DNA from: Lingula anatina
Taxonomy: Eukaryota; Animalia; Brachiopoda
Reading direction: 5' to 3'
Length of the DNA: 64,000 nucleotides
Assembly (NCBI GenBank): GCA_051362555.1
Contig: CM120648.1
Location: 7,126,587-7,190,586, forward strand
The notes under the pieces are model-generated. The model was not told where the DNA came from, ran no database searches, and saw only the letters and a list, made by a program, of their open reading frames with translations. Made by a program: the position numbers and the translations under genes. Shown piece by piece: positions 2,890-64,000 of this stretch (position 1 is the first letter of the stretch; each line of letters starts with the position of its first letter).

Positions 2890-5800
2890 AACGATGTGAA
2901 AATTAGAAATTGAGACGTCGCAGAGTAGTTTAGATGACGAAGATTTCTGAGTTCATTTTTTACTGATGACACAACTTATTGAAATTGGAACGTGATAAAG
3001 ATAGGGATGACGAAGATTTCTCACTGAATTTTTACTAATGACATTGTGAAATTGGAACGGTACACTGAAGATTGTGATGACGCAGATTTCTGCGTTCACT
3101 TTTTTTCTGATGACACAGCTTACTGAAACTGAGACGCCACAGAGTAGATTTGTATGACGAAGAGTTTTAGGTTCATTTTTACTGATGAAACTGCTAAGTG
3201 AAATTGAAACGTCATAGAGAACATAGGAATGACACAGATTTCTGCGGTTACTTTTACTAATAAACTCACCCTAAACATCTCTGTGACGCAGATTTCCGAG
3301 TTTATTTTGACTTATGACATAGGTAACTGAAATTGGAACGTCGCAGAGTACATTTGGATGATGAAGATTTCTGAGTTTATTTTTACTGATGACACAGCTT
3401 ATTAAAATTGGAACGTCACAGAGAAGATAGGAATGACACAGATTTCTCAGCTCACTTTAACTAATGAATTCAGTAATCTGAGTTCATTTTGACTTATGAC
3501 ACAGGAAAGTGAAATTGGAACGTCACAGAGAAGATAGGGATGACGCAGATTTCTGCGGTTACTTTTACTAATAAACTCACCCTAAACATCTCTGTGACGC
3601 AGATTTCCGAGTTAATTTTGACTTATGACATAGGTAACTGAAATTGGAACGTCGCAGAGTACATTTGGATGATGAAGATTTCTGAGTTTATTTTTACTGA
3701 TGACACAGCTTATTAAAATTGGAACGTCACAGAGAAGATAGGAATGACACAGATTTCTCAGCTCACTTTAACTAATGAATTCAGTAATCTGAGTTCATTT
3801 TGACTTATGACACAGGAAAGTGAAATTGGAACGTCACAGAGAAGATAGGGATGACGCAGATTTCTGCGGTTACTTTTACTAATAAACTCACCCTAAACAT
3901 CTCTGTGACGCAGATTTCTGAGTTTATTTTGACTTATGACATAGGTAACTGAAATTGGAACGTCACAGATAAAATAGGGATGGGGCAGATTTCTAAACTT
4001 ACTTTTACTAATTAACTCAGAAATGTGCGTCATTCTTAAGATAAGGATGACGCAAATTTCTGAGGTCACTTTCACTAAGAAATCTGCGTCACCCTAATCA
4101 TCTCTGTGACGCAGGTCTCTGAACTCATTTTGACTTATGACAAAGGAAAGCGAAATTGGAACGTCACAGAGAAGTTAGAGATGACGTAGATTTCTAAGGT
4201 CACTTTTACTGTTGACGCAGCTCATTGAAAGTGGAACGCAGGAGAGAAGATTGGGATGATGCAGACACCTGCGTTCATTAAACTCATGATGCGGTTATTT
4301 GAAATTGGAATTTCACAGAGAAGATGGGTATGACGCAGATATCTGAGCACTTTTTCAACTCATGAACTTAGAAATCTGTGTCATCCCCATCTTTGTGACG
4401 CAGATTTCTGATTCATTTTTACTGATGACACCGCTTACTGAAATTGGAACGTCACAGAGAAGATTGGGATGACACAGATTTGTCTTCTCTTCTCTGTGAC
4501 GCAGATTTCCGAGTTCATATTGACTTATGACATAGCAAAGTGAAATTGGAACGTCACAGAGAAGATGGTGATGACGCAGATTTCTGAGTTCATTTTTTAC
4601 TAATCGACTCAGAAATATGCGACACCCTAATCTTCTCTGTGACGAATGACATACTTTATTGAAATTGGAGTGTCACAGAGAACATTGGTATGTCGAGGAT
4701 CTCTGAGCTTACTTTTATTGTTGACGCAGCTCTTAAAAATTGGAACGCCACAGAGATTACTTTGAAGTCAGATCAAATTTTATTAATGGCGCAGTTTATT
4801 GAAATTGGAACCTCACAGAGAATAATGGAATGACGAAGATTTCATTTTTACTGATGACACAGCTGAAATTTGGACGTCACAGAGAAGGTAGGGATGACGC
4901 AGATTTCTAGTTCTTTTTTTACTGATGATGCCGCTTATTGACTTTGGAACGTCACAGAGTAGATTGGAAAGAGGCAGATTTCGGCGGTCACTTTTACTAA
5001 TAAACTCACCCTTATCATCTCTGTGACGCAGATTTCTGTGTTCATTTTTACTTATGACATTGCAAAGTGAAATTGGAACGTCACAGAGACGATAGGGATG
5101 ACCCAGATTTCGGACTTCACTTTTACTGATACTAAAATTGGAACGTCACAGAGAAAATACGGATGGCGCAAATTTCTTGACTTACTTTTATTAATTTACT
5201 CAGAAATGTGCGTAATTCCTAACCTTTTTTACTTATTTACGCAGATTTCTGAGTTCATTTTGACTGATGACATATCTAAGTGAAATTGAGACGTCGCAGA
5301 GTACATTTGGATGATGAAGATTTCTGAGTTTATTTTTACTGATGACACAGCTTACATGTATTAAAATTGGAACGTCACAGAGAAGATTGTGATGACGAAA
5401 ATTTCTCAGTGAATTTTTACTAATGACATTGTTTTGTGAAATTGGTACGGCACAGAGAAGATTGTGATGACGCTGATTTCTGCGGTCACTTTTACTAATA
5501 AACGAAGAAATCTGCGTCACCCTAATCATCTCTGTGAGGCAGGTTTCTGAGTTCATTTTGACTTATGACATAGCTTCTTAGAAATGGAACGTCAAAAGGA
5601 AGATTGGGATAACAAAGATTTCCGGGTTCATTTTTACTGATGACACAGCTTACTGAAATTGGCATGTCACAGAGAGGATAGGGATGACGCACATTTCTGA
5701 GGTCACTTTTACTAATGAACTCAGAAATCTGCGTCACCTTAATCATCTCTGTGACACAGGTTTCTGAGTTCATTTTTACTAAAGACATGCTTTATTGAAA

Positions 5801-26420: not shown

Positions 26421-26949
26421 TTTTGGGAAAATCTATCGTTCTATGATATGAATTTCAAGTAAAAGCAATGCTTTTAACTGAATCTCTGGACCCTAGAAAT
26501 AAGCTCTTTTTCATATTAGTTGCATTGCAGTTTTTTTTTATTTTTATTTTTCATATTAGTTGCATTGAATAAATAATGACAGTCCAGCTGTATGAATGCC
26601 AGTCTAATCAGGAATGAGTATTCGGGAGGAAGCAGTCCTTATTTATGCTGCCCTCACTGTTGTTGTTGTTCTAAGAGGGCCTTCATTCATTGCAGTTTTG
26701 CATTGAATAAATAGGTGATAGTCCAGCTATCTTTTTGAATAATAATTGATAGTCCAGCTATCCTTGAATAAATTATTGCACAGTTGCCTTTGCATTGTTT
26801 GTTGCATCATGTTATATAAATAATGACAGTCCAGCTGTCTTTGTATAAGTAAATAAATAATAACAGTCCAGCTGTCTTTGTATAAGTGTCAGTAGTTGGT
26901 AATTGTCAGTTATGTTCGGGAAGACACAGTCCTCATTTATCCTGCTCCA

Positions 26950-29480
26950 CTGTTGTTGTTGTTCTAAGAGGGCCTTCATTCCTTCCTACAAGGCTAAGTA
27001 CGTCAGGCCCTCTGCGTTGTCAGGGCAGTATGTACGGCCATGGTAGCCGCTATGACCTGTCTGGATGTTGCGTGGTTTTCCACATTTTTTACAGTAGTTG
27101 CTATTTCTGTCTCTCTAAACCACATATGTAATTTTTTAAAAATTTATATAATACCAATATTGTCTAAATAAGATGTTAATACAAATTAATAATGTTAATA
27201 CAACAGTAATAATCTAAAAATTTACTTTCTCTGGGTGGAGAGGTATTGGTTGCCTCTGTCACGGAGGAGGTGTGTGGTCTAGGAGGGATGTGGAATACAG
27301 GGTCCTCATCAGCATCTGCAATTGTGGGATCACAGTCTTCAGAGAACCCCCTCATCATCAGCATCTTCCTCCATTGTCTCGACAACCTCCTCATCGGGTG
27401 CATCTGGGTCCAGTTTTATAGGTTCTAGGGTCTTTCTCATCTGATAGAGGAGGTACTCGCACCCTAGAAGCTCACCTAGAAGTAAAGAGAGAAATGAGAG
27501 AAATATTAGTAGCAGGCCTCTTTTGTTACTATAATCTATTGGCTGCAATTACATCTAAACTTATTATATACATATAAATTACATGAAATCTAAAGCACTT
27601 TAATTACCAGTGTATTTCAATATTTTCTGAAAAATGAGTGTTTATACAATCTTAGCTGAAAAAATGAAAATCAAAACAAAGAAACAAAACAAAGAAAAAA
27701 ACTTCTTGACACTCTCCACCCTAGGAGTGATGGTATTCTTTGAAGAGGCAAAGCACCCCCTTTGTGTGCCTCTTCTTGAAGTTTGGAGTGTAGCAGAAGT
27801 GTTGTTTGCCCAGTTCTGGCAACGCCTCCCAGTGGTGGATGATCTTCTACACATCTTCAGATCGAGGCACTCCCTGTAGATGTTAGGTAGGGAGATGAGA
27901 ACAGGAGCCAGCTTAGTCATGTCCAGTATCTCTTGCACATCTGTAGACCGTAACCTCCTTCCCATCTTTCTCTCTCTGGTGATCAAGGAGAAGTACTCTT
28001 CTGGGGCAGGGCTGGGTGTGTCCACCATTTCCACATACTACGACCTGGGCATGGTTACCGTTGCTAAAAAAAACAACAAAAAAACGAAATAAATACACTG
28101 ATACAAAAACACACAAGAACAATTAAATTGTTACAAATGCCTTAGGGAAAAAAATGTGTAATATTAATGGTGCCGTTTACCTCTGGGATTTTGATAAGTT
28201 TGGGGATGAATCTCACTATGTGGGAGTGGAAGCTCTCCACCGAGCCTCTTGCACATCTGTAGACTTTCAGCTCCTTCCCGCCCTTAGATTTTCCAGTTTG
28301 GTTGTACAGAGCTCTAGACCCCTTTGACGTCCTGGCGGCATGGTATGTGGCGCTGTTGAGAGGCTCGTGTCTTGCACTCTCTCATGATCAAGGAGTGGTA
28401 CTCCTAGCATGTCACACCCCTGATCATTGTCCAGTGTATTGATTAGCGACTGCAACTGATGGTTGTTTCAGCTACACCATGGGAGCGTTGACGGCAGTAT
28501 TTCTCTATCTCCTTGCGCGAGATGTGCTGCATGATATTGTCTGGACTGACACCAGAGCCCTGTAGTTGGCCCAGCTTGGCATCTCGAAGTGCTGGCAGAC
28601 AACTTCTTCATGAAGACGGCATATAGTGGGTGGCTTTCTGTGGTGACACAGGAGGCGATGTGTTATGGGCAAGTTTGCCCGCACATGAAGTGCCACATAT
28701 CCAATCGCACCACCAGAGGTGGAGCAGCAGTCCCTGACAGCGTACATCACCTTGGGTGGAGGCTGTTCACTGAGCTGGTACCGCCTCACAAGGCCCTGGG
28801 CCATCTTGGTTAGGCCAACTCCCTCCTGAGCAGTGAGTTGAGTTCAGACATTTCCTTTAAACCCCCCCCCCCCCCAAAGAAAGATAACAATAACTATGTC
28901 CAAGCATACATACCTTTTTGGAGTCTATTTTTAAGATGGATCCAAAGGTGGAGGTCACCTTGGCTTTGATCTCATCAAACCTCAACAGCACATCACGGAC
29001 TAACACGGTTTGGAGCTATGCTGACCTGGGAGTTTTCAAACGGTAACAGCTAAAGAGGACTAGTTCTTTGCACATGGGATGAGCTGGCAAACTTGTCCAT
29101 AACTGAGAGGAAATTGGCTACCCTGCTTATACCAATCCCTGGTGTGCTGCTCACACAGTTGCTTGCTCAGCCAAGTAGTACTGGTCCCAAGAGATCGCTC
29201 TCTCAGGAGAGAAAGTATCCAGGTAGAGCAAAAGTACCTGCAACAAAGAATAAAGAACAGAATAAGTTATAAAAGTATAGACAGTTGTTTTGTCCGCTAT
29301 CCTGTTGGGATGTGGTCATAGGAGCGGCAGCTGTACTGGTGCCAGCACCAGCTAAGGCAGGGACAGGTAGCTCTAGGTGTTCTGAGTCACGCAGGTCTTT
29401 AAGTTCCACGGCTGAAGAACCGGGCGGGCGGGCGGCAAGCTGCTTTGTCACTCCAGCTTTTAGCCCCGCTTGTGACAGGT
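26950..29480 (-). pseudogene. Degenerate Dada-like DDE transposase, catalytic and C-terminal parts (mosaic)
   Basis: KVTSTFGSILKIDSKK (~28915-28965), MAQGLVRRY...RDCC, RLDMWHFM (DxxH), GVPLLD, YRCARGSVESFHSHIVRFIP, PRVESVKK, GELLGCEYL...DPTI, CGKPRNIQTGHSGYHGRTYCP; many frameshifts. Confidence 0.7.
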
Positions 29481-33448: not shown

Positions 33449-38207
<4,759 letters not shown>

Positions 38208-41577: not shown

Positions 41578-44500
41578 ATGAAAGATCTTCAGCACTCTCC
41601 AGACAGGAGTCCACAAAATGGAACCCCTGCGACACCTTCTCCAAACTCCTCACGACCCGAGTCTCCAGGCCTCCTGCCATACAAATATATCTCTCTCATG
41701 GACCGTATCAAAGCTAAGATTGCAGATGACGAACCGTTTTTTTCACTAGAATTCTTTCCTCCAAAGACTGAAGAGGGCGCTGTAAATTTGGTTGCCAGGT
41801 ATGTTGTGCATAATTATCACACAAGAAGCAATCTGTTATCATTGTCACATCCCACATAATTAAATGAATGGGCAGTTTTTTTTTTTTTGACAAAGTTGCC
41901 TGATTTTTTCATCACCCGACTGGCATGAAAATAACGTAAAAATTTTATATGATGAGGGGAGGGGCAGGAGAATTTAGTAAATCTTTTTATCAGCAAATAA
42001 AAATGTTTTTGGGGTAGTGGGAATTTTTCTGGCCAAGTAATGGAGAACACTTGCCCAAAGGATGACAGAAAAACCTTATTGTCAACTCCTGAACACTGTT
42101 TTAGTTATGACAGTTTTACAAGATTGCTTATTCAGTGTTGTTACTTTTGTGTTAAGTATGGCAGTATGTTTAGTCTGGCAGTGTTTTAATTTTAATAAGG
42201 TCTTGAGTGCAAATGAGTGTTTAGGTCAATTTTCCTAAGTGGCATGACAAGTCTTGATGATGTCAGCCCCCCTGGTGGTGCTTTTACAGCTGGCACAACA
42301 CGCCCCCAGAAGTCTCTCGTATTCTCTTTCAGGCTTGAGCGCATGTTGCTGGGAGGTCCCCTCTTCTGTGACATCACATGGCACTCTGCGGGAGACCCGA
42401 CCTCGGACAAGCACACCAGCTCCACAGCCATTGCAGGCACCATGTTGAATTACGTTGGCATGGAAACCATGCTTCACCTGACTTGCATCGGTGCATCCAA
42501 GGCAACCATGATTAATCAGCTGGAAAGAGCCAAGGAGTTGGGTATTAGGAATATTCTTGCTCTGAGAGGAGGTAAACATGATATGTTATTTTATAAAATT
42601 AAAATGAATGGATATTTGATATGTTATCACCCCTTACTCACTGTAACACCTAACACATTGTCACACTTAACACATTCTCACACTTGGCACACCGACACTC
42701 CAAAGGTACAAAAATTTACCGATGGTATGTACTGTTTCCCACTGTATCGCACTAAATTTTTGAAAAAACATTATAGATTTGAGTCAATTTTTTCTGTCAT
42801 ATTTAATACAGTTAAAGCTTTTAGAATTGCATGTCTATTTTCCAAATTATAATGCACTGTTAGATTATACTCTCAAGAAAATAATATCTTTATGAATGAG
42901 ATAATTTAACACAGTATACAATTCCTTTTTTTTAACCCTTTAGATGCCAAGTTTGGCGAGGAGTGGAAACCAGAGCCAGATGGTTTTAACTATGCCACAG
43001 ATCTTGTCAGGTTTATCAGGCTGCACTATGGAGACTATTTTGTTATCTGTGTAGCAGGTGAGAAAGCAGTGTTGTGTCCATATCACACTTCAATACCAAA
43101 ATACCCCATTACATCCATAATTGTTACATGAGTTACAATCATCGTACTGTCACACCTTATACTGAGATGCCAAATCACACAGGCATGCCCAGTTATTTTA
43201 TCTTTACCCCCTACAATATCACATCCAACTGGCTGTCACACCTAACACATTGTCATACCTTAAACTGAGAGAAATTCACACTGCCACACACAATGCAACG
43301 TAGCATCCAAATGGTCGTCACACCTGACACATTTTAGCATACACTGTCATGTCCAATGTACTGTAAATAGTAAAATCCATCATCACAGTTTTCATTTCAT
43401 CGTGTAGGTTACCCTAGTGGGCATCCAGATTGCGAATCCTACGAGGCTGACCTTCAGAACCTAAAAACGAAAGTAGATGCTGGAGCAGACTTTATAATCA
43501 CACAGCTGATTTTCCAGTCAAAGACTTTCCTGAAGTATGTGCAGGACTGCAGGAATATCGGCATTACAGTTCCTATACTGCCAGGAATAATGCCATTTCA
43601 GGTGAGCAAGGGTCATACTTATATATAGGCTTGTTTTAACCTTTATGATAATAATAGTCATAATAATTGTCCATTTGTGGTTTACAATTTTGTCATATAT
43701 CTGATTAACTTGTATTTTTTAATAAACAACTTAGCACATTCATAGTTAAAAATTCATTTAGCTAATTGTGTAATTCACTTGAATAAGTACTTTACTTTGA
43801 GTATTTGTAGTTTTAGAATTAATCAAGTCTGAAATTATTTACACTTCTGTTCCTAGTATATTTATATATTTCAATCAACAATTTTATAGCTGTGTTTTTA
43901 ACTGCCCCCCCCCCCCCCCCCCAATCATTGATAAGTGGAATCTGTCCATGTGGCTTGTATATCTTATTCCTATCTAAACTTGTTTTTCAGTCTTATCAGT
44001 CACTTCGCCATATCACACGTTTGTCTAAAATGGAGATCCCACAAGAAATTTTGGACGAGGTGATACCTATCAAAGACAACGATGAGGCAATCAGGAACTG
44101 GGGTATTGACATTGCATACAGAATGTGTTCAGAAATCCTTGCCGCAAAAGGAGCGCCTGGCCTCCATTTTTACACCTTAAACAGAGAGGTCGCCACTGTT
44201 TCTGTTCTGAAGAGACTTGGAATGTGGTGTGAGGAACCAAAGAGAATGTTGCCATGGAAACCAACGGCCAATCACATCCGCTGTATGGAGGACGTGAGGC
44301 CGATATTCTGGAGGGCGCGCCAGAAGAGCTATGTTCAGCGTACATCAGACTGGGAGGATTTCCCTAATGGCAGATGGGGAGATTCATCCTCAGCGGCCTT
44401 TGGGGCCTTGAAGGACCATTACCCATTCTATCTTACCAGTAAATCTTCACATGAAGAGTTGATGTCTATGTGGAAAAAAGAACTGAATAGTGAAGAGGAT

Positions 44501-47500
44501 GTTTGGGATGTTTTCTACCACTATATCACTGGGGAGGCATATGACGATGGTGTGAAGGTGAAAACCTAGAATACAATCTGATCTCAACACTGTCACATCT
44601 AACACATTTTTAAGGACAAGATTGAGTCTTGCATATTCACTAACTTCAGGGTTTTACTTCTTTATGTTTATTATTATTTTTTTTTTTTCTTCTGCAAGCA
44701 CAAAATATATCATTTCCAGTGGGGATTTAAAAACAACATTTTTTTCCTACATGCAAGATGTATTATTTTCAGTAGGGTCTCCAAACTGTATTTTCTTCTC
44801 AACACACATACACAAAAAAAATTCTTCATATTCCTTATTTTATCTGCACCCCAGGTTACCAGGCTACCATGGGAGGATGACGAGGTCACCCTGGAGACCA
44901 GCCTCATCAGCTCAGAACTAGCCTCCATTAACAGGAAAGGGGTGCTGACCATCAATTCTCAACCAAGAATTAACTGCGTCCCCTCCACAGACCCTGCCGT
45001 GGGATGGGGGAGCCATGATGGGTACATCTTCCAGAAGGTAAGGGTCGTCCATCCAAAAAATAAAGTGAACTTTTGGTCAGGTCAGTGACAAACATTTTGT
45101 CTTGTCTTTACTTTCCTGTTGAAATCACTTTTCAAATACTGCTTGTTTCTTTTCATGTTTTATGCTTTGTTTAAAAGAAAAAAATCCCCAATCCCTTATT
45201 TTTTAAACAGATTTGAGTTTTTGCTAGAAGTATCTGAGCATTTACACTTTTCCTATGGTATCTGAATTTTTTATTTATTTCAAGGTAAAATATATATAAC
45301 GTTTGGAACACTATGCAACATGTACTGATGACCCTAAATTTCTATCTGAACAGTATGAACTTTTTTACAGCAGTTAATTATACTTAAGACTTACTGAAAC
45401 CTGTTAAAATGAATTCCATCTTTTTTCTTCTTTTTTTCAGGCATATTTGGAATTTTTTGTATCCAAAGAAAAAGTTGATTGCTTGAAGGAAATTTTGCCA
45501 GAATATCCCCTGGTCAACTACCACATTGTCAACTGCACAGTAAGATTTTTACTTTTTTGTACTGACAAAGCTACACTGTCATTTCTCTACAAAATATTTC
45601 GATATTAGATAATCTTCTCAATTGTACATGTCTTGATTGTCCCTTTGAAATATAAAGTGCATTCCATGCAAATTTATATTTGTTTTTTATTCATTTTTTT
45701 TTTAATGTTTTCATTCTCATTTAACTTAATTGATTATGAATGTGACATTATCTCAAATCAAATCAATGACTGTGCATCAGCTTGGTTGGCAAAACTCATT
45801 TTTATCTGTCCCTTAGATCCTGATTGCTCCAACTTGCTTGTAGCCTTAAAAGTTCAACACAGACTGACTTAGGAAATAATTTATTGTCTTCAGGGCGAAG
45901 CAGACTACACAAATTGTGATGAACACAAGCCCATAGCTGTAACATGGGGAGTGTTCCCTGGGAGAGAAATCATCCAGCCAACTGTGGTGGATCCTGTAGC
46001 ATTCAAGGCGTGGAAGGTAAAGATTGCTTCTATATTTCTGTTTTCTCAACTACCACATTTTGGTAATAGAGTCAGAATCTTGTCTGTGATTGCTTTTTAT
46101 TTATTTTTTATTTATTTATTTATTTATTTTTCATTAGTAGTAGTGCTTATTTGGTTCAGGTTCATCTGTCATTTCTGTTAACATTTTTGTTTGTATGGGG
46201 ATTTTGGACATGAAGGGAAATTTACTGCTTGCATGAAAATTTTAGCTACTTTCTCACCACTCTTGAGAGACTGGGCCAGTTATGCAAATTTCTTAATTTT
46301 ATACAGGATTTAGGAATATGCAAGTGATGTTTACATTCATTAAATTTGATATCTTTGCATGAACATAGATTCTTAATTTCATAGTTTAGCTTGTGACTTC
46401 TTGTCTATGTTTGATATCTACACTTTGATGTTGTTATACATGCTCTGTTCTGTAGGGTTTTTTCCTCTGATTTTACACATTTATTTATCTATTTATTTTT
46501 TAATGTATTTGTATGTTGCTTCCCAGTTGGTGTTGCTAACTAAAATATGCAGATACATTCCAGGAATTTGTGTGTTTGAAGTGACTTTTGTGTGTAATCT
46601 TGACATCTGGGGTGCAAGATGGTTTTGTTGAATGTGTGCTTAAATCATAACTTACAGTACTATTTTTGGGCGTAACTTTCAAAACTAACCTTCTTTATGT
46701 CCTGGTCTAATGAGTGATTTTTGGCTTTTGACCAAAATTGGTCCAAAAATCATTCTGCAAATATGCTTCTATTATCGAACATTCCTTCCAAAGCTTTTAC
46801 AGCAGGGTCCTAAAGCAAGTTTTTATGGCTTCTAGCAAAAAGCTGACATATAACTTAATTTAGAAAGGAATGGGTTTCACACTCAAAGTATTGTTTGTGA
46901 GAGGTGGTATATGTTCTGGTGGGATCAAATGGTATGAGCAAGTTCTGGTGTTTGTTAGTTTATCAGTGTTTGTCTGTGTCATAAGGAGCTGACACCAGCC
47001 TCTCCGCCAGCTTAAGCCACCATGGCCATGTCACATGACTCAACGGCTGTCACATGACTGTCACATGATCCAATGTCTCATCAGCTCTTACTGAGGTATT
47101 CGGATGTCAATGCTACAAATTAAAGTTATAGTTAGTAAAGAATTAACCTTATTAACAGCTGTTAAAAATACATGGGCATAAGATATCTAATTACAGCACC
47201 TGACTTCTTAACTTTTTCTTATTTGTTTATTTTAAAAAATATTATTCGGTTTCAATGGACTGGACACCTTGTTCACACCATATAAGTTGGAAAAAACACT
47301 AAAATGAATTACAAGTGGCTTATTTTTATGATTGGAGATCTGAACTTGCACATACTCTCCTTGGTCAGTTTGGTTGGTGGTCAGTGTGTTCAAGCAGATC
47401 TGCAGTCAAATCTGTCACTGCCTTGCTGACTGTTAGCCTGACACACACAAAAAAAATGTTTGATTTCGAGTATTAACCCTTTTATTAAATCTATCCAAAA

Positions 47501-48743
47501 TCACAAATCATAAAAAGCCCACAAAGCTGTTAATGGGTTAATCTTAGTTATAATAAATTGTAGAAATATGAAACATTTAGTTTTTTAGTATGTTTGTATA
47601 TTGACATGTATGTTTCTGTTATTGAAAACATTATATTACGAGTGTATTTGATAAATGGTTATAGTTACTTTTGAAAGAGTGTAGATGTGTATGCTTTATA
47701 TAGTTGCCCTATTTCTGTGAGTGTGTATATGTGTGCATGCATGTCCCATAAAGAGAAAATTCTTGTTAAATGAATAGATCTTCTGAAATGAATTTTACAG
47801 GAATTTTGAACAGGAAACAGAGAAATTCAATTGATAACCATAAAAGATTTTTAATTAAGCAATTTTATCAAAGCTAAATGAGAATGATTAACCATTCATT
47901 TATTTGAAATAAGTGCTTTATATATATACATATACTCTCCTCCTTTATGTGAGCAAATGGACATTTCCTTCTTGTCTTATATTTCATATCTCGGGTGGAG
48001 GCTGTACATATAGTTATACATATCTTAATGTCATATAAGTGTAGGGCAGTTAATTTTTGTTTCAAGTAATAATGATTATTTTAATGTTAAAAAATAAGCC
48101 ACAAATACCAACCATTCTCTTACTTGCACTGGTGTTAACAGCACCGTGTCTGCCATATCCGCCGACTGACTGAAATGTCATTATCCTTTAAGGACGAAGC
48201 CTTCATGTTGTGGTTGAACCCATGGGCTGACCTTTACCCTGAGGGATCCAGGTCCCAAGAACTGATTAGATACTTTCACGACAACTATTATCTCGTCAAT
48301 CTGGTCGACAACGAGTTCCCGAAGGAAACGGTCCTGTGGGAGATTGTAGATCGCATGTGCAGTATGGCAGAAAGTAGAAGCGATGGAGCCGTTCAGCAAG
48401 GTAAGAACTGCTTGTACTTCTTTTGTAGTTTTGTTTTAAATTTTTGTTTTTTGAGGGTTAATGGCAACTTGCAATTTTTCTCTACTTGAGTTATTCAAGT
48501 ACACAAGTGTCTGCATGCTTGCATACACATATATTTGAACATTTTACAGTGTTCAAAACTGCTGCTTTGCACTTCAAAATATCTTTGAGCTTTCCTTCTC
48601 AATTTCTCACTCTAAATCAGTTTATAAGACGGCAACCAATAAAATAGTGTTGTAGTAAATGAATGCTTTATTTACTTTTCCACCTCCCTTTTCCAGAGGA
48701 GGCTTGTCAACCAAAGTTCCAGAAACTTGCTGCCAGCCAATAA
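41578..48743 (+). CDS. MTHFR: Methylenetetrahydrofolate reductase, ~664 aa
   Basis: Exons 41578-41798, 42333-42571, 42944-43057, 43408-43601, 43991-44557, 44855-45037, 45441-45539, 45894-46016, 48193-48400, 48697-48743; motifs [83 protein letters not shown]. Confidence 0.97.
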
Positions 48744-51215: not shown

Positions 51216-51920
51216 TCACGTGTCAGGTTTCATCTGAGTGACTAGTGGATTCCTGTCTGGGTTGTTAAGGTTTTGTACAGTTTCTATGGCGTCCAGGCAG
51301 TCGGGTCTTATCGGCGGCTGTCGTTCAGCTCCGAAGATTGACGGCAATGAGCTTACGCGCCGACTTCGGAAATTTCCGTCGGATGTAACAGAGAGCCGCC
51401 TGCAGTTGTCACAAGAAACCTCACTTTGTCTGCGAAACTTTTCCAAAAGTTTTTGCTTGAATTTGCTCGCTTGTTCTTCTGGGTCCATCTCTTTTAACTT
51501 TCTCTCAACCTCGGGCCTGAAATTTCTCAGAGAAAATCCCGAGTTGTATACCCGCGTTTCGTATTTGACTTTCCGTGCGTTTTCGGGAGTCTTCGATTGT
51601 CCTGGCTTATATCCGAGTCTCAGCGTATCAAAGTGGTTCGCTCTGTAGTCCGACTGAAGAACGCGCTTGTATGCCTCCATTTCTCTTAAAGACTTATTAA
51701 TTCTTTCGATAGCCCTGTTGTTTATTACTTCTTGTGAATGTTGATATTTCTCCATCACTTTGTTCACCATTTTGAATTTTTCCGCCTCGCCTTCGTTTAG
51801 TTTTTCGGCGCGTCTCCGAGCAGCGAAACTGATGTCTAGAACTGAATTGAATACGGATCCCTTTCCGATTGGACAGTTGTTTGTGTCTCGGACCAATTTT
51901 CTGTTCGTGATCTGTGGCAT
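51216..51920 (-). CDS. Uncharacterised 234-aa basic protein, single coding exon
   Basis: Long GC-enriched ORF in AT-rich context; upstream acceptor (ttttttttcag, ~52186) and donor (ag|gtatg, ~53053) suggest 5'UTR exons; no family recognised. Confidence 0.65.
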   Translation of the reverse strand: MPQITNRKLVRDTNNCPIGKGSVFNSVLDISFAARRRAEKLNEGEAEKFKMVNKVMEKYQHSQEVINNRAIERINKSLREMEAYKRVLQSDYRANHFDTLRLGYKPGQSKTPENARKVKYETRVYNSGFSLRNFRPEVERKLKEMDPEEQASKFKQKLLEKFRRQSEVSCDNCRRLSVTSDGNFRSRRVSSLPSIFGAERQPPIRPDCLDAIETVQNLNNPDRNPLVTQMKPDT

Positions 51921-53885
51921 AGCGCCGTGAGTGATATCTTATAGGCCTATATTTAACAAAGTCTGCTTCTTTTCTAAACATGTAGTCTAATCAAAGTGGC
52001 CTTAAAAGCGTTCCAGCGCTCATTAAAAAAATAACGCTTTCTTGGCCGTTATTTTTGTAAGACCAGTCCCTTATATAACTGGTGTCGTTTTCCTGATAAG
52101 AATCCAGGCAATCTGATGCTCGCCGTTTCGATGAACGGATGCTCGTCTTTGCTGTCGATTAGGTAGATTAGTTTTGCTTGAAGCTCTGAAAAAAAAATAG
52201 GAAATATTCATCAGTGATATCATTGGAAAATGTACCATCCAGCACGTCTGGGGTAGGCCTATAAGTCTATAAGTCAGTGAAAAGACAGGAGATTTTGATT
52301 GTCTGCAATCGTCCTTCTTCTCTTTGGATAGCTTTTGTTTATCTCTCAAAAAACAAACTACACCCATTTTTGCCCCTGTAACAAAGTGTTTAAAAACTGC
52401 CATTTTAACAAAGTGGCCATGGGAGAAAGAAGGAAAAATGGGGACAGAAAGTACCAAGGATGTGTTAATATGATTTCTTGTCTATTATGAATACAACAAA
52501 AAACATAATCACAGATCTACGGAAACATAACATATTTTGGATTTCACAGGCTCCGAATGCGATCCTCACACCTCGTAATAAATTGCCTTTTGCGGGCATT
52601 TTCCAGGCTGATTCTAGAGATTTCGGTTTAACGGTTATACATTCCTGAAACCGCCTATTAGTATAGGGCATATCTAATAAAGTTTGTAACTACACAACTT
52701 GATGTCTGGAAAGTATTCTAAAATTGTCGAAGGTTAGGAAATCTTCTTAATTAAATCTATTTGATCTCTCTATCTCACGCTCTTTTATTTTGTTAAGGTG
52801 CTTTTATACAGAAAACGACCTCCAGTCAGTGCGTCACTGAACTGATAAATTGCTATAAAAATACATTTGAAACTTAACTATCGTATTGTATTGGAGACTT
52901 CATGGCATTCACGTGAAATGAAATATCAAAGAAAAAGTTTTACATCGAATTATTTACAGAAACAGTTGAAATAATGGCGAAATTATATTATAAGTCAGAA
53001 ATATCTGGAAAAAATGCCCCGCGTGATTGAAAATATATTAAGATTAAACATACCTTAGAAGGCCTAACTGTTTTGATCACGAGCTTCTCCAAGCTCATAA
53101 TGAACGTTAGCATTCGTCCTTCCGAGTGAAACTCCAAAACAACACGTATTTCAAATAATTAATACAAGAAAACACCATAAAAGAAGACTGGGAGCAACTC
53201 CATTATATCTTAGTTAGTAATCCGCTCCAATCTACACATTGGCACCTGTTTGATGGTTGGAGCCCCTTTTTTTCACCTGAGTTTACACCTTTCTACATTT
53301 CTCCGGCAGGTTCGGAATAAAACTGACGACAACCCAATCCACTGTGTGCCTCTTAGGCCGCGGGTTTATTTTTAACTCCCTGAAACTAACACCTTATCTT
53401 GAAGGCGTCGCAACGATTTGAAATGTTGTAAATAATGAATATTGAAGGCCGAATTCACACCAGCTTCAAATAGAGCGTATCTTGATCAATCTTTATGGCG
53501 TCGAGATTTTTTAATTGCACTCGGGCCGGTGTTCCCCTCTGTATGTCGCTCAGAGCGGACGTACTTATTGAGTTGGATCCTTGGAGTGCGGTTGGGGGGG
53601 GGGAAAAGCACACGCTATTTCAAAGTAAATCGGAAACATAGCCGGCGTCCTCTCGATCGCGCACTTGCGATCCATCTGAACTTGGTAGGAAGGTGGCTTA
53701 AAAGTCATTACGTCAAGAGACTAACTCACAAGAGCTTATCGCCGCTTTACATTATTTGGATTAGTTCTATTTGATTTAGTATTGTGCGAATTGACGTTCG
53801 ATAAGACTTGATACATTTACAGACTAAGGCAGTTCATTTGATTGATTCGTTTGGCATGTTAGCTTTGCAAATGTTTCGTTACCGT

Positions 53886-59300: not shown

Positions 59301-61580
59301 TAACTTCACTTTCAAGCAGAATGTTGTCATTTCAGTTTTTAAGCCATCCACTGCCGTCTTCCCCAATTTCAATTGCGTGGTATCTTACACCAAATTCCAC
59401 TGTCTCAATTTTCCTCATTCCCTGGCAATCATTCAGAGTTTACTCCTCGTCTCTAGTAATCAAAAATAGGTTCATCAGAATAAATAACCATATCTGTTGC
59501 AAACCACAATTATCTGAGGCAATTTCTGGCAAGTTCGTTATCTATCATTCGTTGTAAAATGTTCAATTTCTTCCTATGATTATGTTCCAATTCTGTTTTT
59601 GGGGTAAAGAACCAGAAATTGTGCATTGTAAATTGACAGGCTCTATTTGTTCCTATCTGAGGTAAAACAATGAATGACGACCTCCTCAAAAATCACAGTT
59701 TTTAAAAATAAAGTGTACATAATAACAATAAGATACTAAATGCAACATTTTGTGATATCTTACCATCATATTTGTGAAAGTTAAAATATCAATTATATAT
59801 GTATATCATATGATATAAAATGGCAATTAAAGTGGAACTTAAAGCCAAAGCATTTTTACTTGTATACACTTGCCTAGGAAAGTAGTCGACACCAGTCACC
59901 CTGACAACACAATGCCATGGCAACATGTTGCCATAGACACTGTCATATTTGCTATGCTGAAGCCAAATTAGGTGGGATGCTCTTCACAAGCCACAGACAA
60001 TTTACTACATTTAACTGAATCATACAATTTAATTAGTTTAAATATTGCCAATTATCAAAGAAAGGGTTGGTTTCTACTAAAGCAGCCTATTTACACTCAC
60101 ATGATTAAAATTATCACTTAAATGTTCTACACATGATCTATATTTTTTTCTTTTGTTGTTGTTGTTCAAACATCCAATTCTATTAGATACACAGTTCATA
60201 ACATTCTGGATTTATTTACAAAATGCCAACATTTGTACACACATGATCATCACTGACGTACTCAGCCACAGAGGTCTATTCCAAGGCACAGGATGTAATT
60301 GCTTTATGTTCAAATATAATTTCATACTGAAAGTTTTCTATTTGCTAAAAAAAAAAAAATAATAATAAAATAAAATAAATAAAATTAAAATTGGTTCAAC
60401 TTGTTTCGGCCTCTTGGGCAACCCTTGTAAATGAATTTTAAAAAAAGGCGATTTAAACAACGCAATTATCATTTAACGGTCCCATTCCAAATTTTGGGAA
60501 ATTTAGAACCTAAACGCAATATATAAATCAATAGTTTTCCTGTTATAAGACTTCAAAATCGAAAGACAATTTCACAGGACCTTTCCAAATCCCCCAGAAA
60601 ACAATGTGGAGATTATTTGTTTTGCTCCCTGGAATGTCTTGCTTCAGTGGCGTTCTTTCTTCTCTCCAACTTCATGCTGGCCATCTAATCTCTTCTTTGA
60701 ACACAGGGAAATTTCACCCAAAAAAGGGCTATACAAAATCAACACAACCCACTTGCTAATAGGCTGTGTGGCTGTCAAGGTACGCTTATTCAATGTTATT
60801 CTTTAAAAACCCAAACATTACCTGTTTCCCCTCTCATCAGAAACTTTTTCAACTAGATGCGTAACCATTGGATAAGAACATCTTGACAGCTTCACCCCTG
60901 TCAAGTGGGTAACATCGACTTTGTACAGCCATTACTATAAAGCTGCTACGCATACGCATTAACATTACAATATCTGATGCTCACTATGTCATGTCTCAAG
61001 TAAAGAGGCAGGCTGAAAATAGTGCCACCTATGGTGCAGTTCATTGTGACCTTGACCTTACACTCAGAACGAGGCTGACACCTCCAGTGACCTAGAAATA
61101 TCCTATCCATTGGCACACCCCACCTTTTGGACACTAACAATCAAGCATGAATATGTGTACTTTGAGAAATTAAATTCAATCATAATCAGTTTTAGTAATA
61201 ACACTTATATAAGCACCTGACAGAAAAAAATATACATACAGATTATTACTTATGTGCACGAATGATATAGTACTGATAGACACTTGAATTGGTCTCTTAG
61301 TGCTTGATATGAGCCTATCTGACAAGATGGTCTCCTATATCAGAATTTCTCAAAAAAAGCTTCAAATTTGATTCGAAATGTGCAATCTAGAAGAAATATC
61401 AAGCAAATCAAAAATATGTCAAAAATGCTTATTTACTTTCTCCTCCCGGTGACTTTTTTTTTTTTTCATTTGTGTTCTTAGTGTCTTAAATAAATCACCA
61501 TTCAATCTAATTTCTTTCATCAAAATGTTTGTTTTTTTTTTTTGGTTCTTCTTCGAAAATCACAATATAATGGTCTTTGT

Positions 61581-63275
61581 TCAAAATGTGAGTGTGGAGT
61601 CGTCCCACTCAAGTTCACGATCTTTTACTTTTTCAGACTCGTCTTCAGAGCTCTCCAGCTCGTCGTGGTAGCTACTAATATCGTCATCGCTATCGCTGTC
61701 TTCTCCCTGGTTACCGTGCACCATCACATGGTCATCTTCAAAGTCTAAACCCTGCAAATCCAAATAAAACATTTTCAAGTTGTATTTTTTAAATACTTTG
61801 AATAATGAATATAGAAACTTGATGCAAAAAGGTATCTAATAGGCAAAAATATGTACGTGGGTGAATGAACTAAGAAACCACATAAATATTGGAAAAAGAG
61901 AGAGAGAGAGAGAGATGGTTCCTCACCTCACTCTCCATGGGGTTCACAGTGATACTGAGGGCAGAGTTGTCCCACTCCATCTCTGGGTTCTCCTCCACTT
62001 TCACCACATTGTGCTGGTTGTGCTGTGCTCTGATCCTGATCACACCTAACACAATCATGAACATCAGGAACCCAACGCAGATCACGATGATGACCACGAT
62101 ACCTGCATCTGCAAAATCAATAACACAATCATGAACATCAGGAACCCAACACAGATCACAATGATGACCACGATACCTGCATCTGCAAAATCAATACAGT
62201 TCAGTCAGCACAAGGTTTTCAATATAGGAATAAAATATGTATAAAAAAATCAATCCTGGACAAATGACATTTATAGAATGTCAAAACAAACAAAAAATGT
62301 GACCTCTCTTCTATGGGCAACAACTGTCTATCTATATTCATCCTCAATTGAGGTGGGCCAAAAGTTGAAATCTCCAAGCTGAGTGCAACTTATTGGTCTC
62401 AAACACCTAAAACCTTTCCTCCTTTTAACCAGCTCAAAGACAAAATCACTTTATTGCTTAATCAATCTTTCTTTTGACTTACTGGCATGCCCAGAGACAC
62501 TGGCAACTGTGTTGGTTCTCTCCTCCAGGTTCATGTCTCTACCCTTGGAGTCCTGTATGCTGTTGTGATGGGCATAAACCTTGTCACTCATGGCATGGGC
62601 CTGGTTCTCATGCACCACAGCCTGCTGCTTGTGGCTGCCTTCAACCTGAAGAGGATTCCATGCAAATCTGAGTGAAATATCTAATGATATTGCTTATTCT
62701 TGACAATTATCCAATTTCACAATTTTTATTTATTTATTAATTTTTTTAACTCATCTATGAAATATCTACAAATCTAATTTCATACACTTATGCCAGTAGC
62801 AGTAAATAGGTTTTCCCACACCAATGGATATCAAATCATTCCTATAAGTAACAAGTGCTTGAGCAAGCCTTTTTATGAAGTCTTCTTGCTTGAAAAAAAA
62901 AAAAAATTACATTTTCCTATCTTTCACATTGTGTAATTCCATACCTGTACTTTGAACTTATTGCTGACAAATCTGCCGTTCATCTCAGAACACTGCACAA
63001 CAAAAGCACGTGGTCGCATGCTGCTGCCAGAGTTTGCGTATTTCACACCATGAAGAATTGCCTGATAGTTAGAAATCAGGTCTGCGCCTATAAACAATTT
63101 TGAAAATCATTAGTAGCCTTACTTGTTAAAAATCCTTCCTATGCAGTCATAATGACATCAGAGCTTCAGTCTTTACATTTTTACATAATAAGAAACTATT
63201 TCAGTTCAAAATGGCCTAAATCCACTGCTACATTCAACACCTTTCACCAATCATTTGACGTCTACCAAGTTTAAT

Positions 63276-63330
<55 letters not shown>

Positions 63331-64000
63331 TTACCAGAAATAACCACAGAGTTGGCATCCATCTTGTGCTCCAGCTGCAGATGTTGGATTTGATTGGCTG
63401 GCAGAGTGAGACTCTCAGTGCTGACATCTAGTGGTGGATTGGCTGTGATGGTGCACATATCCAGGTTCACCATGGCACCGGTGGGTTTGGTGTCTTCTAC
63501 AGTAAACGGACAGAAATTATCTTGATTGGTGGTCAATTGGCTGGCTAAATGCTTTGCTCACTTATCTTTACGTTAACTTTGTTTTCTTTTCTGTCTGCAG
63601 CTCAATGCCATTGTTCAAAATTTACTTTAAAATTTTTGATGACTGAGCACCAAACACATCAGTCTAGTGGATTTCTGGTCTTTATTGGTCCTATGTCTAC
63701 AAAAACCTTGATTCAGTCTTAAAGAACGCAAAAATTACGTAAAACAATGATGCAAATTAAACAAACTCCAAAGAAGACAAAAAATTACAAAAATTGCAAC
63801 ACCAGAGCCCCACTTACGTTCCATCAGCTTAGGGTGCTCGTGAACCTCATTCTCATCCTCTCCGTCCTCTGCCTTACTGACGATAGAGAGGCCCTGGAAA
63901 ATGGCCACCCCCTCAGCCAGGTCAGTCATGGGTCTGATGAGGTGACCAGTGCCGCTGATGGTGATTGTGGGGCTTTCTGTCTCCACCACCATGATGTAGG
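61581..64000 (-). CDS. CLSTN1: Calsyntenin, 3' exons (gene continues beyond the window)
   Basis: Exons >64000-63818, 63544-63335, 63087-62945, 62645-62483, 62108-61927, 61751-61581; CSEMNGRFVSN, TM VVIIVICVGFLMFMIVLGVIRIR, two W-acidic motifs (EMEWDNSALSITVNPME, ELEWDDSTLTF*) and an acidic tract. Confidence 0.93.
63282..63328. repeat. (GA)n microsatellite beside a calsyntenin splice donor
   Basis: Direct read. Confidence 0.9.

Follow-up and report, generated by a model that had tools for sequence, protein, structure and literature searches.

A U6-like satellite and two dead Dada transposons beside a U6 gene pair of Lingula anatina

In a 64-kb stretch of the Lingula anatina genome, hereafter the window, whose MTHFR sequence is 100% identical to that of this brachiopod, a satellite array resembling U6 snRNA lies next to two U6 genes, and fragments of Dada transposases lie further on. 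What is seen here is likely debris left at a site where U6-targeting transposons inserted long ago, and not a working defence system. The explanation that we favour, for which we judge the case evenly balanced, is that an old cluster of U6 genes holds a Dada insertion site, since decayed, together with a neutral satellite grown from a shortened U6 copy. The initial annotation had assembled these parts into a functional system: the parts are real, the system found no support, and both transposases are long dead. The features are, by position:

2890..8165, plus strand: U6-derived satellite, ~50-57 units, 75-bp base unit, 5.3 kb
8490..8596, minus strand: U6a snRNA gene, intact (Rfam U6, 116.7 bits)
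8597..8900, minus strand: U6a upstream region, with PSE-like (8643-8658), TATA-like and CTCF-like (8886-8900) motifs
12605..12912, plus strand: U6b upstream region, with CTCF-like motif (12605-12619), PSE-like motif (12851-12866) and TATA box
12913..13020, plus strand: U6b snRNA gene (Rfam U6, 105.1 bits)
21759..26431, minus strand: Dada remnant B, from tblastn/profile matches, DDE core missing
21759-21843, minus strand: C-terminal scrap of B
To the first catalytic D (~22100), minus strand: decayed stretch of B
23755-23886, 23049-23171 and 22690-22791, minus strand: DUF6729 exons of B
25556-26431 and 24249-25141, minus strand: N-terminal exons of B, two tandem copies, 78.5% identical
26432..27000, minus strand: joint from A to B, with duplicated pieces of the stop/3′ region of A, then the upstream intron of B
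27000..29257, minus strand: Dada remnant A, with DUF6729 end, DDE core, acidic linker and CCHC finger

The PSE-, TATA- and CTCF-like motifs upstream of U6a are common to U6b; a further PSE-like match was seen at 1203, 1.7 kb off the array. U6a carries a complete Dada-U6 target, that is, CAGAGAAGA, 14 nt and GCGCAA, the last being U6 nt 65-70 and the site of Dada-U6 insertion (PMC3706591), in agreement with the initial annotation. U6b bears one additional G (12977/12978) where GCGCAA begins, in the ISL loop, confirming the extra base first noticed there, and its spacing from CAGAGAAGA to the target is 15 nt versus 14 in U6a. The 5′ stem of U6b shows a compensatory pair change relative to U6a.

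The base unit of the array resembles U6 nt ~16-107 without 17 nt, which comprise the ISL's 5′ arm and loop and include GCGCAA. Units follow one another head to tail in tandem, with higher-order structure, and their number depends on anchoring, being 50 at up to 5 mismatches and 57 at up to 6 (about 2890 to 8165). Unit identity was 80% to the consensus and 68% pairwise, and a 311-bp higher-order repeat at 3171-3969, with 96% identity, is young. The consensus is identical to U6 nt 23-52 at 26 of 30 positions, and its 5′ score against U6 was reached by 0 of 20000 shuffles. The tail past GATGAC, which resembles U6 77-107, was matched as well by 26 of 20000 shuffles and by 2 of 16959 stretches of the window, and by 41 of 20000 shuffles with the T-run held fixed. 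The spacing of 4 nt between TTGGAAC and CAGAGAAGA is also U6's own. To judge by these sequence matches, the array is U6-derived on both sides of the gap. As U6, its units would be unable to function, because the AGC triad and the ISL are gone, no PSE-like motif occurs within the array and each unit terminates in a T-run. Against Rfam U6 they scored at most 21 bits, the gathering cut-off being 44.

Fifteen fold-back (inverted) arms were counted in the array, and the predicted folding of fold-back units gave -40 to -56 kcal/mol. These units were rejected as miRNA or snoRNA, their Rfam scores being far under gathering. The right end of the array (8140-8165) resembled a fish Dada-U6 end by eye, but was discarded as such, since terminal CCT and TSD are absent and the junction scan described below was negative.

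U6 gene arrays and pseudogenes likewise comprise many copies of U6-like sequence; in contrast to them, the units here are 75 bp, promoterless, spacerless head to tail and under the Rfam gathering. PcP190 of frogs is a satellite derived from 5S. For alpha satellite, an origin from a snoRNA is put forward as a hypothesis (PMC4233971). Both satellites share with the present array a shortened RNA-gene copy in tandem and higher-order repeats, and differ from it in that the source here is U6, with the catalytic ISL arm internally deleted, fold-back units are frequent and the array lies beside its parent genes. The literature searched yielded no report of a U6-derived satellite, and the 22-nt unit motif had 0 matches in metagenome contigs. 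If the favoured explanation holds, this would be an apparently unreported case, a satellite born from a U6 gene.

The best-fitting deletion length, 17 nt, equals the spacing of the near-repeat AGCATG/AGGATG, and the gap is flanked by these two near-identical 6-mers, which are U6's own. A deletion between native near-repeats requires no transposase. The array had been said to lack the GCGCAA segment: it is indeed absent from the units, but it makes up only the final 5-6 of the 17 nt lost. Over the first 38 nt, the match to U6 is 33/38 with the deletion and 31/38 without, so that most of the evidence for the deletion comes from the tail (p about 0.001-0.002). In 5′-anchored, ungapped units, conservation was 0.91 for TTGGAAC, 0.86 for CAGAGAAGA, 0.79 for ATGAC and 0.69 for GATTTCTGA. 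With a 5′ anchor the Dada-type motifs came out as more conserved than the rest of the unit, with a 3′ anchor as less conserved, and in the alignment as about even. We attribute the better 5′-anchored conservation of TTGGAAC and CAGAGAAGA to anchor bias, although some selection is possible; allowing for this bias, conservation is roughly uniform along the unit.

The remnants belong to the Dada superfamily, as seen from DUF6729, the D/DxxH/E residues and the CCHC finger. This bears out the initial annotation, which had described decayed, Dada-like DDE fragments with a DxxH motif 9-16 kb from U6. The core of A, at 28.2-29.0 kb, reads KIDS, YAVRDCC, DMWH and ESFH, the second catalytic D, positioned by alignment, having decayed to V, and the distance from the second U6 is 8.7 kb for the nearest Dada piece and 16.2 kb for the farthest. 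Pfam DUF6729 matched two stretches, 23025-23261 with E 5e-14 and 22519-22845 with E 7e-9, and tblastn and profile matches to Dada transposases span HMM columns ~276-1272. The CCCC finger shows as ECNFC in the DUF6729 exons of B, and the C-terminal CCHC finger of A as CKKC-H-C at 27010-27105. A word-based homologue search with the frameshifted core ORF gave no match. Among the homologues collected, P0013/P0163 were matched by eye to Dada-U6_GoWi and P0237 to Dada-U6_DaAe of Kojima 2022 Dataset S1. What had been taken for a single element proved to be two distinct families, placed head to tail: A and B have 14 of 31 residues in common where they overlap, and blastn between them gave no match across the shared exons. 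Remnant A contains numerous frameshifts and stops. The ends of a Dada element are defined by a TSD of 6-7 bp without terminal inverted repeats; both remnants have lost both ends, and their joint retains neither a Dada end nor a TSD nor any piece of U6.

A Dada-U6 insertion is recognized by the two parts of U6 that flank it, nt 1-70 and 65-end, by GCGCAA/GCGAAA as TSD, and by a subterminal CAGAGAAGA/TCTTCTCTG located 14 nt from the TSD. A scan for such junctions near A and B found none; the same scan detected U6-type ends in the Dada loci L005, L023, L042 and L063, the 3′ end of L023 being a U6-type tandem junction. A U6-type end occurs in 3 of the 8 loci extending at least 600 nt beyond the C-terminus. 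Rfam scans of Dada loci (of 80) returned the U6 half of L042 only in a set of 20, and nothing in a set of 11. Outside the genes and the array, no U6 half was found in the window, loss by decay being indistinguishable from absence; near the remnants, the search for a split U6 gave no shared 11-mer and a best short match with E about 1, in agreement with the initial observation of no split halves there.

Targeting of U6 by the remnants is likely, and is deduced indirectly, from trees, since neither element ends nor a TSD nor a U6 half have been preserved. The earlier designation of the remnants as U6-targeting is thus kept as far as the likeliest target goes, but has no junction to go with it. 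In the trees, which were built without Capitella and oyster Dada-U6, elements with U6-type ends (L005, L023, L042, L063 and fish) occupied four distant places, showing that U6-type elements are not monophyletic. Because these ends lie so far apart, U6 is the parsimonious default target. Both remnants lie in the portion of the tree that contains fish Dada-U6 and Dada-tA. Remnant B fell in a starred clade of 15 rows (98/90) with fish Dada-U6, Dada-tA, P0011 and P0208. Remnant A grouped with L036/L021 (100/97), inside an unstarred group of 16 rows (91/96) that includes L023. No U6 was found within 8.6 kb past the C-terminus of L036, the closest relative of A, so decayed Dada apart from U6 does occur. 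Like Dada-U6 (PMC3706591; PMC8869645), the remnants combine a DDE transposase bearing DxxH with CCCC (DUF6729) and CCHC fingers and introns; as there, two families stand head to tail in a U6 cluster, with the transposase strand opposite to that of the nearer U6. Unlike Dada-U6, they lack ends, TSD and U6 halves, both copies are dead, and they fall outside the fish Dada-U6 clade in free trees; Brachiopoda is also absent from the four host phyla that PMC8869645 lists for Dada-U6. Dada, likely of the U6 type, would be extended to brachiopods.

We infer the following course of events for the favoured explanation. A U6 copy at this place would first have received a U6-type Dada, and the target re-created by that element's own end would then have been entered by a second Dada family. 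In L023 and L063, the element's own end does re-create the arrangement of CAGAGAAGA, 14 nt and target, which explains head-to-tail stacking, and Dada insertions in tandem have been reported for U1 (PMC3706591). Later deletions would have erased the ends of both elements, the joint and the dead U6 halves. Separately, one U6 copy may have lost 17 nt via slippage or microhomology repair between AGCATG and AGGATG; this shortened copy would have lost its promoter and then been multiplied through unequal exchange together with fold-back template switching.

Another possibility, which we regard as not very likely, is that repair after Dada had cut U6 at nt 65-70, or had been excised there, produced both the founder of the array and the extra G in U6b; microhomology joining of a break between the 6-nt near-repeats would give the exact 17-nt deletion, later amplified. 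Dada remnants are nearby, the best-fitting deletions (53-69, 54-70 and 55-71) end at most 1 nt from the target's 3′ edge, the target's 5′ edge carries the extra G, and the ends of Dada-U6_DR and Dada-U6_CT show a terminal G adjoining the TSD. With two separate lesions at the Dada site, a role of Dada is mildly favoured. However, when deletions of 10-30 nt are placed at random, 19% (251/1302) have an end equally near a target edge, slippage at the ISL hairpin yields the same product, and G to GG, here within a loop, is the commonest type of indel or sequencing error. The array as a by-product of insertion and excision, an idea of the initial annotation, is possible but not diagnostic, the deletion being flanked by native near-repeats. 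A fortuitous neighbourhood is unlikely as well, the remnants then being a tRNA-targeting or relaxed lineage, or dead fragments moved in, with no tie to U6. Such a reading would fit the missing U6 halves and ends, the other mobile-element debris present in the region and the position of L036 away from U6. Fish Dada-tA, which targets tRNA-Ala and is a sister or derivative of Dada-U6, also shares the larger clade of B, and Dada-tA-like proteins are the best named matches of A (52-53%, versus 44-49% for fish U6), a ranking biased by the collecting query, P0011. In AU tests, neither Dada-tA (p 0.31) nor fish Dada-U6 (p 0.32) was rejected as sister to A, and a FastTree tree of proteins alone placed A beside Dada-tA (0.86). 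Yet in trees with the invertebrate loci A branches outside the tA clade, its group contains L023, which has a U6-type end, the 64-kb window holds no tRNA gene, and two different families stand head to tail 9 kb from U6.

We consider it improbable that the host built a counter-measure from the target itself, as in the decoy field of the initial annotation. Here ~50 uncuttable U6 copies, carrying both Dada-end motifs as TTGGAAC-N4-CAGAGAAGA, would soak up transposase like a sponge or feed hairpin small RNAs, U6b would putatively escape through its 1-nt spacing shift, and local Dada would have gone extinct. The array does hold 18 of the 20 plus-strand CAGAGAAGA of the window and 12 exact double motifs, none with a target behind, and in no array unit is there a GCGCAA-type site 12-16 nt behind CAGAGAAGA. 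TTGGAAC/GTTCCAA is also repeated in Dada elements, inside the 5′ end of L005, that of the element after L063 and those of several fish Dada-U6, fold-back units are predicted to form hairpins, and U6b retains promoter motifs along with its compensatory stem change. Nevertheless, motif conservation was not preferential once the anchor was changed, binding is inferred mainly at the insertion site and next to it, the 5′ ISL segment that is absent from the array being among the places bound (PMC8869645), U6a retains a perfect target 380 bp off, and the array is still turning over although both local transposases are dead. Least probable, and very much so, is that the array is an amplified Dada end, a subterminal repeat whose likeness to U6 would be the known mimicry of the target by ends. 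As a matter of fact, CAGAGAAGA is present in Dada-U6 ends (PMC3706591), and the 5′ end of Daphnia-type Dada continues into CAGAGAAGATTGGG as the unit does, with TTGGAAC in tandem. In contrast to the Dada ends read, however, the unit retains U6's own spacing, its likeness over U6 23-52 and its 3′ tail, which disfavours the amplified ends initially proposed; the nearest Dada coding sequence is more than 13 kb from the array, and blastn of the array against 80 Dada loci gave no match.

Were the counter-measure real, hosts would possess a new kind of defence against site-specific transposons, and target reading by Dada could be dissected with the unit and U6b as natural substrates. The new invertebrate junctions spread U6-type targeting over the animal Dada tree, and the repeated TTGGAAC of Dada 5′ ends is a candidate second recognition motif.

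Pfam DUF6729 matched two ORFs at 22.5-23.3 kb, and a homologue search with a single 46-residue exon returned 151 proteins at E <=0.001; among 10 long homologues checked, 9 were named proteins of fish, amphioxus or sea urchin. Mapping by tblastn and with a profile from 138 long homologues placed two non-colinear Dada pieces, A and B, on the minus strand. These and the two U6 snRNA genes are:

29257 to ~27000, minus strand: Dada remnant A, with DDE core (KIDS, YAVRDCC, DMWH, ESFH) and CCHC finger
26431 to 21759, minus strand: Dada remnant B, with N-terminal exons, DUF6729 and a C-terminal scrap
8490-8596, minus strand: U6a (Rfam U6)
12913-13020, plus strand: U6b (Rfam U6)

The initial annotation's decayed DDE remnants with a DxxH motif were thus borne out as Dada, the motif being DMWH, although not as a single reconstructed element. 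Because A and B have 14/31 residues in common where they overlap, they are two families, head to tail. The core of A has lost its second D, at YAVRDCC, and the N-terminal exons of B are present in duplicate (78.5% identity). At the joint, a duplicated 3' region of A is followed by an intron of B. As already noticed from the sequence, no U6 halves were found around A and B in the window, and a junction scan there found no Dada-U6 end pattern. The known Dada superfamily is likely new to this phylum: we found no Dada in Lingula in the literature searched, though the 2013 alignment file, figures and Repbase may contain brachiopod Dada.

By their Rfam matches in the window, U6a and U6b lie head to head. 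Their upstream 340 nt can be aligned and have common motifs, which we take to be PSE-like, TATA-like and CTCF-like; the presumed CTCF-like motif is kept ~300 nt upstream of each gene (8886-8900, minus; 12605-12619, plus). A compensatory pair separates the two 5' stems and both fold, which suggests past selection on U6b. As assembled, U6b indeed has the additional base reported just before the Dada-U6 target GCGCAA, a G within the ISL loop, giving a CAGAGAAGA-to-target spacing of 15 nt instead of 14.

The U6-like array (~2890-8165) contained 50 units by a U6-like 20-mer anchor at <=5 mismatches, and 57 at <=6. Simple units of 74-77 bp numbered 14; in others, fold-backs were inserted, with 15 inverted arms and 18 switch-back joints. 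The array also has a 311-bp higher-order repeat (96% identity). Over 50 nt, units were 80.5% identical to the consensus and 68% to one another. The consensus matched U6 nt 23-52 at 26/30 positions, and the score of the 5' part was attained by 0/20000 shuffles. For the tail (after GATGAC), the match to U6 77-107 was attained in 26/20000 shuffles, 41/20000 with the T-run held constant, and 2/16959 window stretches. Such a U6-derived satellite is apparently unreported so far: neither a satellite of this origin nor a decoy array was found in the literature searched, including passages of PMC12191414, PMC7754599 and PMC4233971. A 22-nt motif of the unit had 0 matches in the metagenome contigs.

The single deletion best fitting the array to U6 was 17 nt long (53-69, 54-70 or 55-71; 33/38 matches, with still 31/38 without any deletion). 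With it go the region of the AGC triad, the 5' arm of the ISL and GCGCAA, either entirely or for the most part, in agreement with the earlier claim that the units lack this segment. Since U6 itself has the near-repeats AGCATG (53-58) and AGGATG (70-75) spaced by 17 nt, slippage or microhomology repair would explain the deletion with no need for a transposase. Random deletions ended equally near a target edge in 251/1302 cases. A Dada cut is a possible but unlikely trigger.

As to target choice, in a survey of metagenome Dada loci (best 80 of 164), a U6 half directly adjoined Dada in 2/80, L005 and L042, and 2/80, L023 and L063, ended in a head-to-tail junction, CAGAGAAGA-14 nt-TTGCGC-14 nt-TCTTCTCTG. 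A U6-type end was present in 3/8 loci extending 600 nt beyond the C-terminus, most contigs being shorter than that. The L023 and L063 junctions (L023:9055-9114, L063:4101-4160) have a U6-type TSD and both subterminal repeats without U6 sequence; there, a Dada end would act as target for the following element. The L023 transposase is colinear until 1.07 kb short of its junction end, and the L063 end, compared by eye, is the published Daphnia end. A Dada C-terminal piece (~521) immediately ahead of another DDE core (L022:1-3201) looks like a second instance of stacked or rearranged elements.

Trees were built with FastTree (86 non-redundant proteins of 135, plus 73 loci with sufficient core) and IQ-TREE (70 picked rows, LG+G4), fish labels (U6, tRNA-Ala or tA, etc.) being assigned by by-eye translation of passages of the PMC8869645 supplement. 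In both, L005, L023, L042, L063 and the fish U6 clade were widely separated, with tRNA-targeting fish clades in between, which makes U6 the parsimonious default target under a midpoint root and weak deep support. The new invertebrate Dada-U6 junctions (L005:12-77, L042:4485-4554) belong to elements distant from fish Dada-U6; U6-targeting elements thus do not form a single clade. Passages of PMC8869645 give Dada-U6 for four phyla and propose that Dada-tA originated from Dada-U6.

Of the remnants, B clustered with protein P0208 (100/99), within a clade of 15 rows that also includes fish U6 and tA (98/90; 38 rows, 160 columns), and A with L036/L021 (100/97) within a 16-row group including L023 (91/96). 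The opposing reading ties A to tA, or to Dada away from U6: AU tests on 30 rows rejected A neither with fish U6 (p 0.32) nor with tA (p 0.31), A was adjacent to tA when metagenome loci were omitted, and no U6 was found in the 8.6 kb downstream of L036. On balance, phylogeny and junctions make U6-type targeting by the remnants probable.

Most likely, an old U6 cluster would have received a Dada insertion, a second family stacking at the target re-created by the end of the first element, and later deletions would have wiped out the Dada ends and U6 halves. As a separate event, one U6 copy shortened through microhomology would have given rise to the satellite. The proposal of a system combining U6 genes, array and transposase stood as an observation, together with the Dada identity and the U6 derivation of the array, but not as a functional system. 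Its option of amplified Dada ends is disfavoured, as the unit retains U6 spacing and a U6 tail and the array matched none of the 80 loci (best 80 of 164). The idea that the array is a decoy for the transposase can draw on plus-strand CAGAGAAGA, 18/20 of whose occurrences in the window fall inside the array, on 12 exact double motifs with the target behind none, and on TTGGAAC/GTTCCAA, which is repeated in 2/3 invertebrate Dada 5' ends (2 and 8 copies/200 nt vs 0.15 background) and recurs in several fish 5' ends. We nevertheless consider a decoy very improbable: U6a, adjoining the array, keeps a perfect target, and no clear signs of selection were found on the array. With a 5' anchor, conservation was higher for TTGGAAC (0.91) and CAGAGAAGA (0.86) than for ATGAC (0.79) and GATTTCTGA (0.69), a 3' anchor inverted this order, and an alignment of units made it roughly equal; the ranking varies with the anchor chosen.

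TTGGAAC is the 7-mer directly before CAGAGAAGA in U6 and possibly a second Dada-U6 recognition motif, of which passages of the two Dada papers make no mention. The repeats lie at L005:54-254, L063:4130-4330 and in fish Dada-U6 5' ends of PMC8869645 Dataset S1.

The window also holds:

569-730/1472-1638, 18381-18490/18822-18931, 14423-14455/16062-16094 and 10174-10214/10620-10660: inverted-repeat pairs
20446-20709, minus strand: 88-codon ORF, no Pfam match, unnamed eukaryotic clusters similar at score 0.90
33480-34310, plus strand: probable exons encoding a small coiled-coil protein, in the interval from the Dada remnants to MTHFR; no Pfam match for one of them
about 41600-48500, plus strand: MTHFR gene, exon 43991-44557
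51216-51938, minus strand: 240-codon ORF, no significant Pfam match
about 61500-63600, minus strand: calsyntenin C-terminal exons (Pfam CLSTN_C)

The four pairs resemble non-autonomous DNA elements such as MITEs. Short inverted repeats (19964-19986/20940-20962) enclose the 88-codon ORF, presumably a transposon-associated fragment. Calsyntenin has a duplicated 74-bp exon segment at 62047-62196. The 189-residue MTHFR exon shares 100% of its residues with a Lingula anatina protein (next species, 66%), which assigns the window to this brachiopod; one exon matched two Lingula anatina clusters at 100% and 99%, which suggests haplotype copies or a duplicate.
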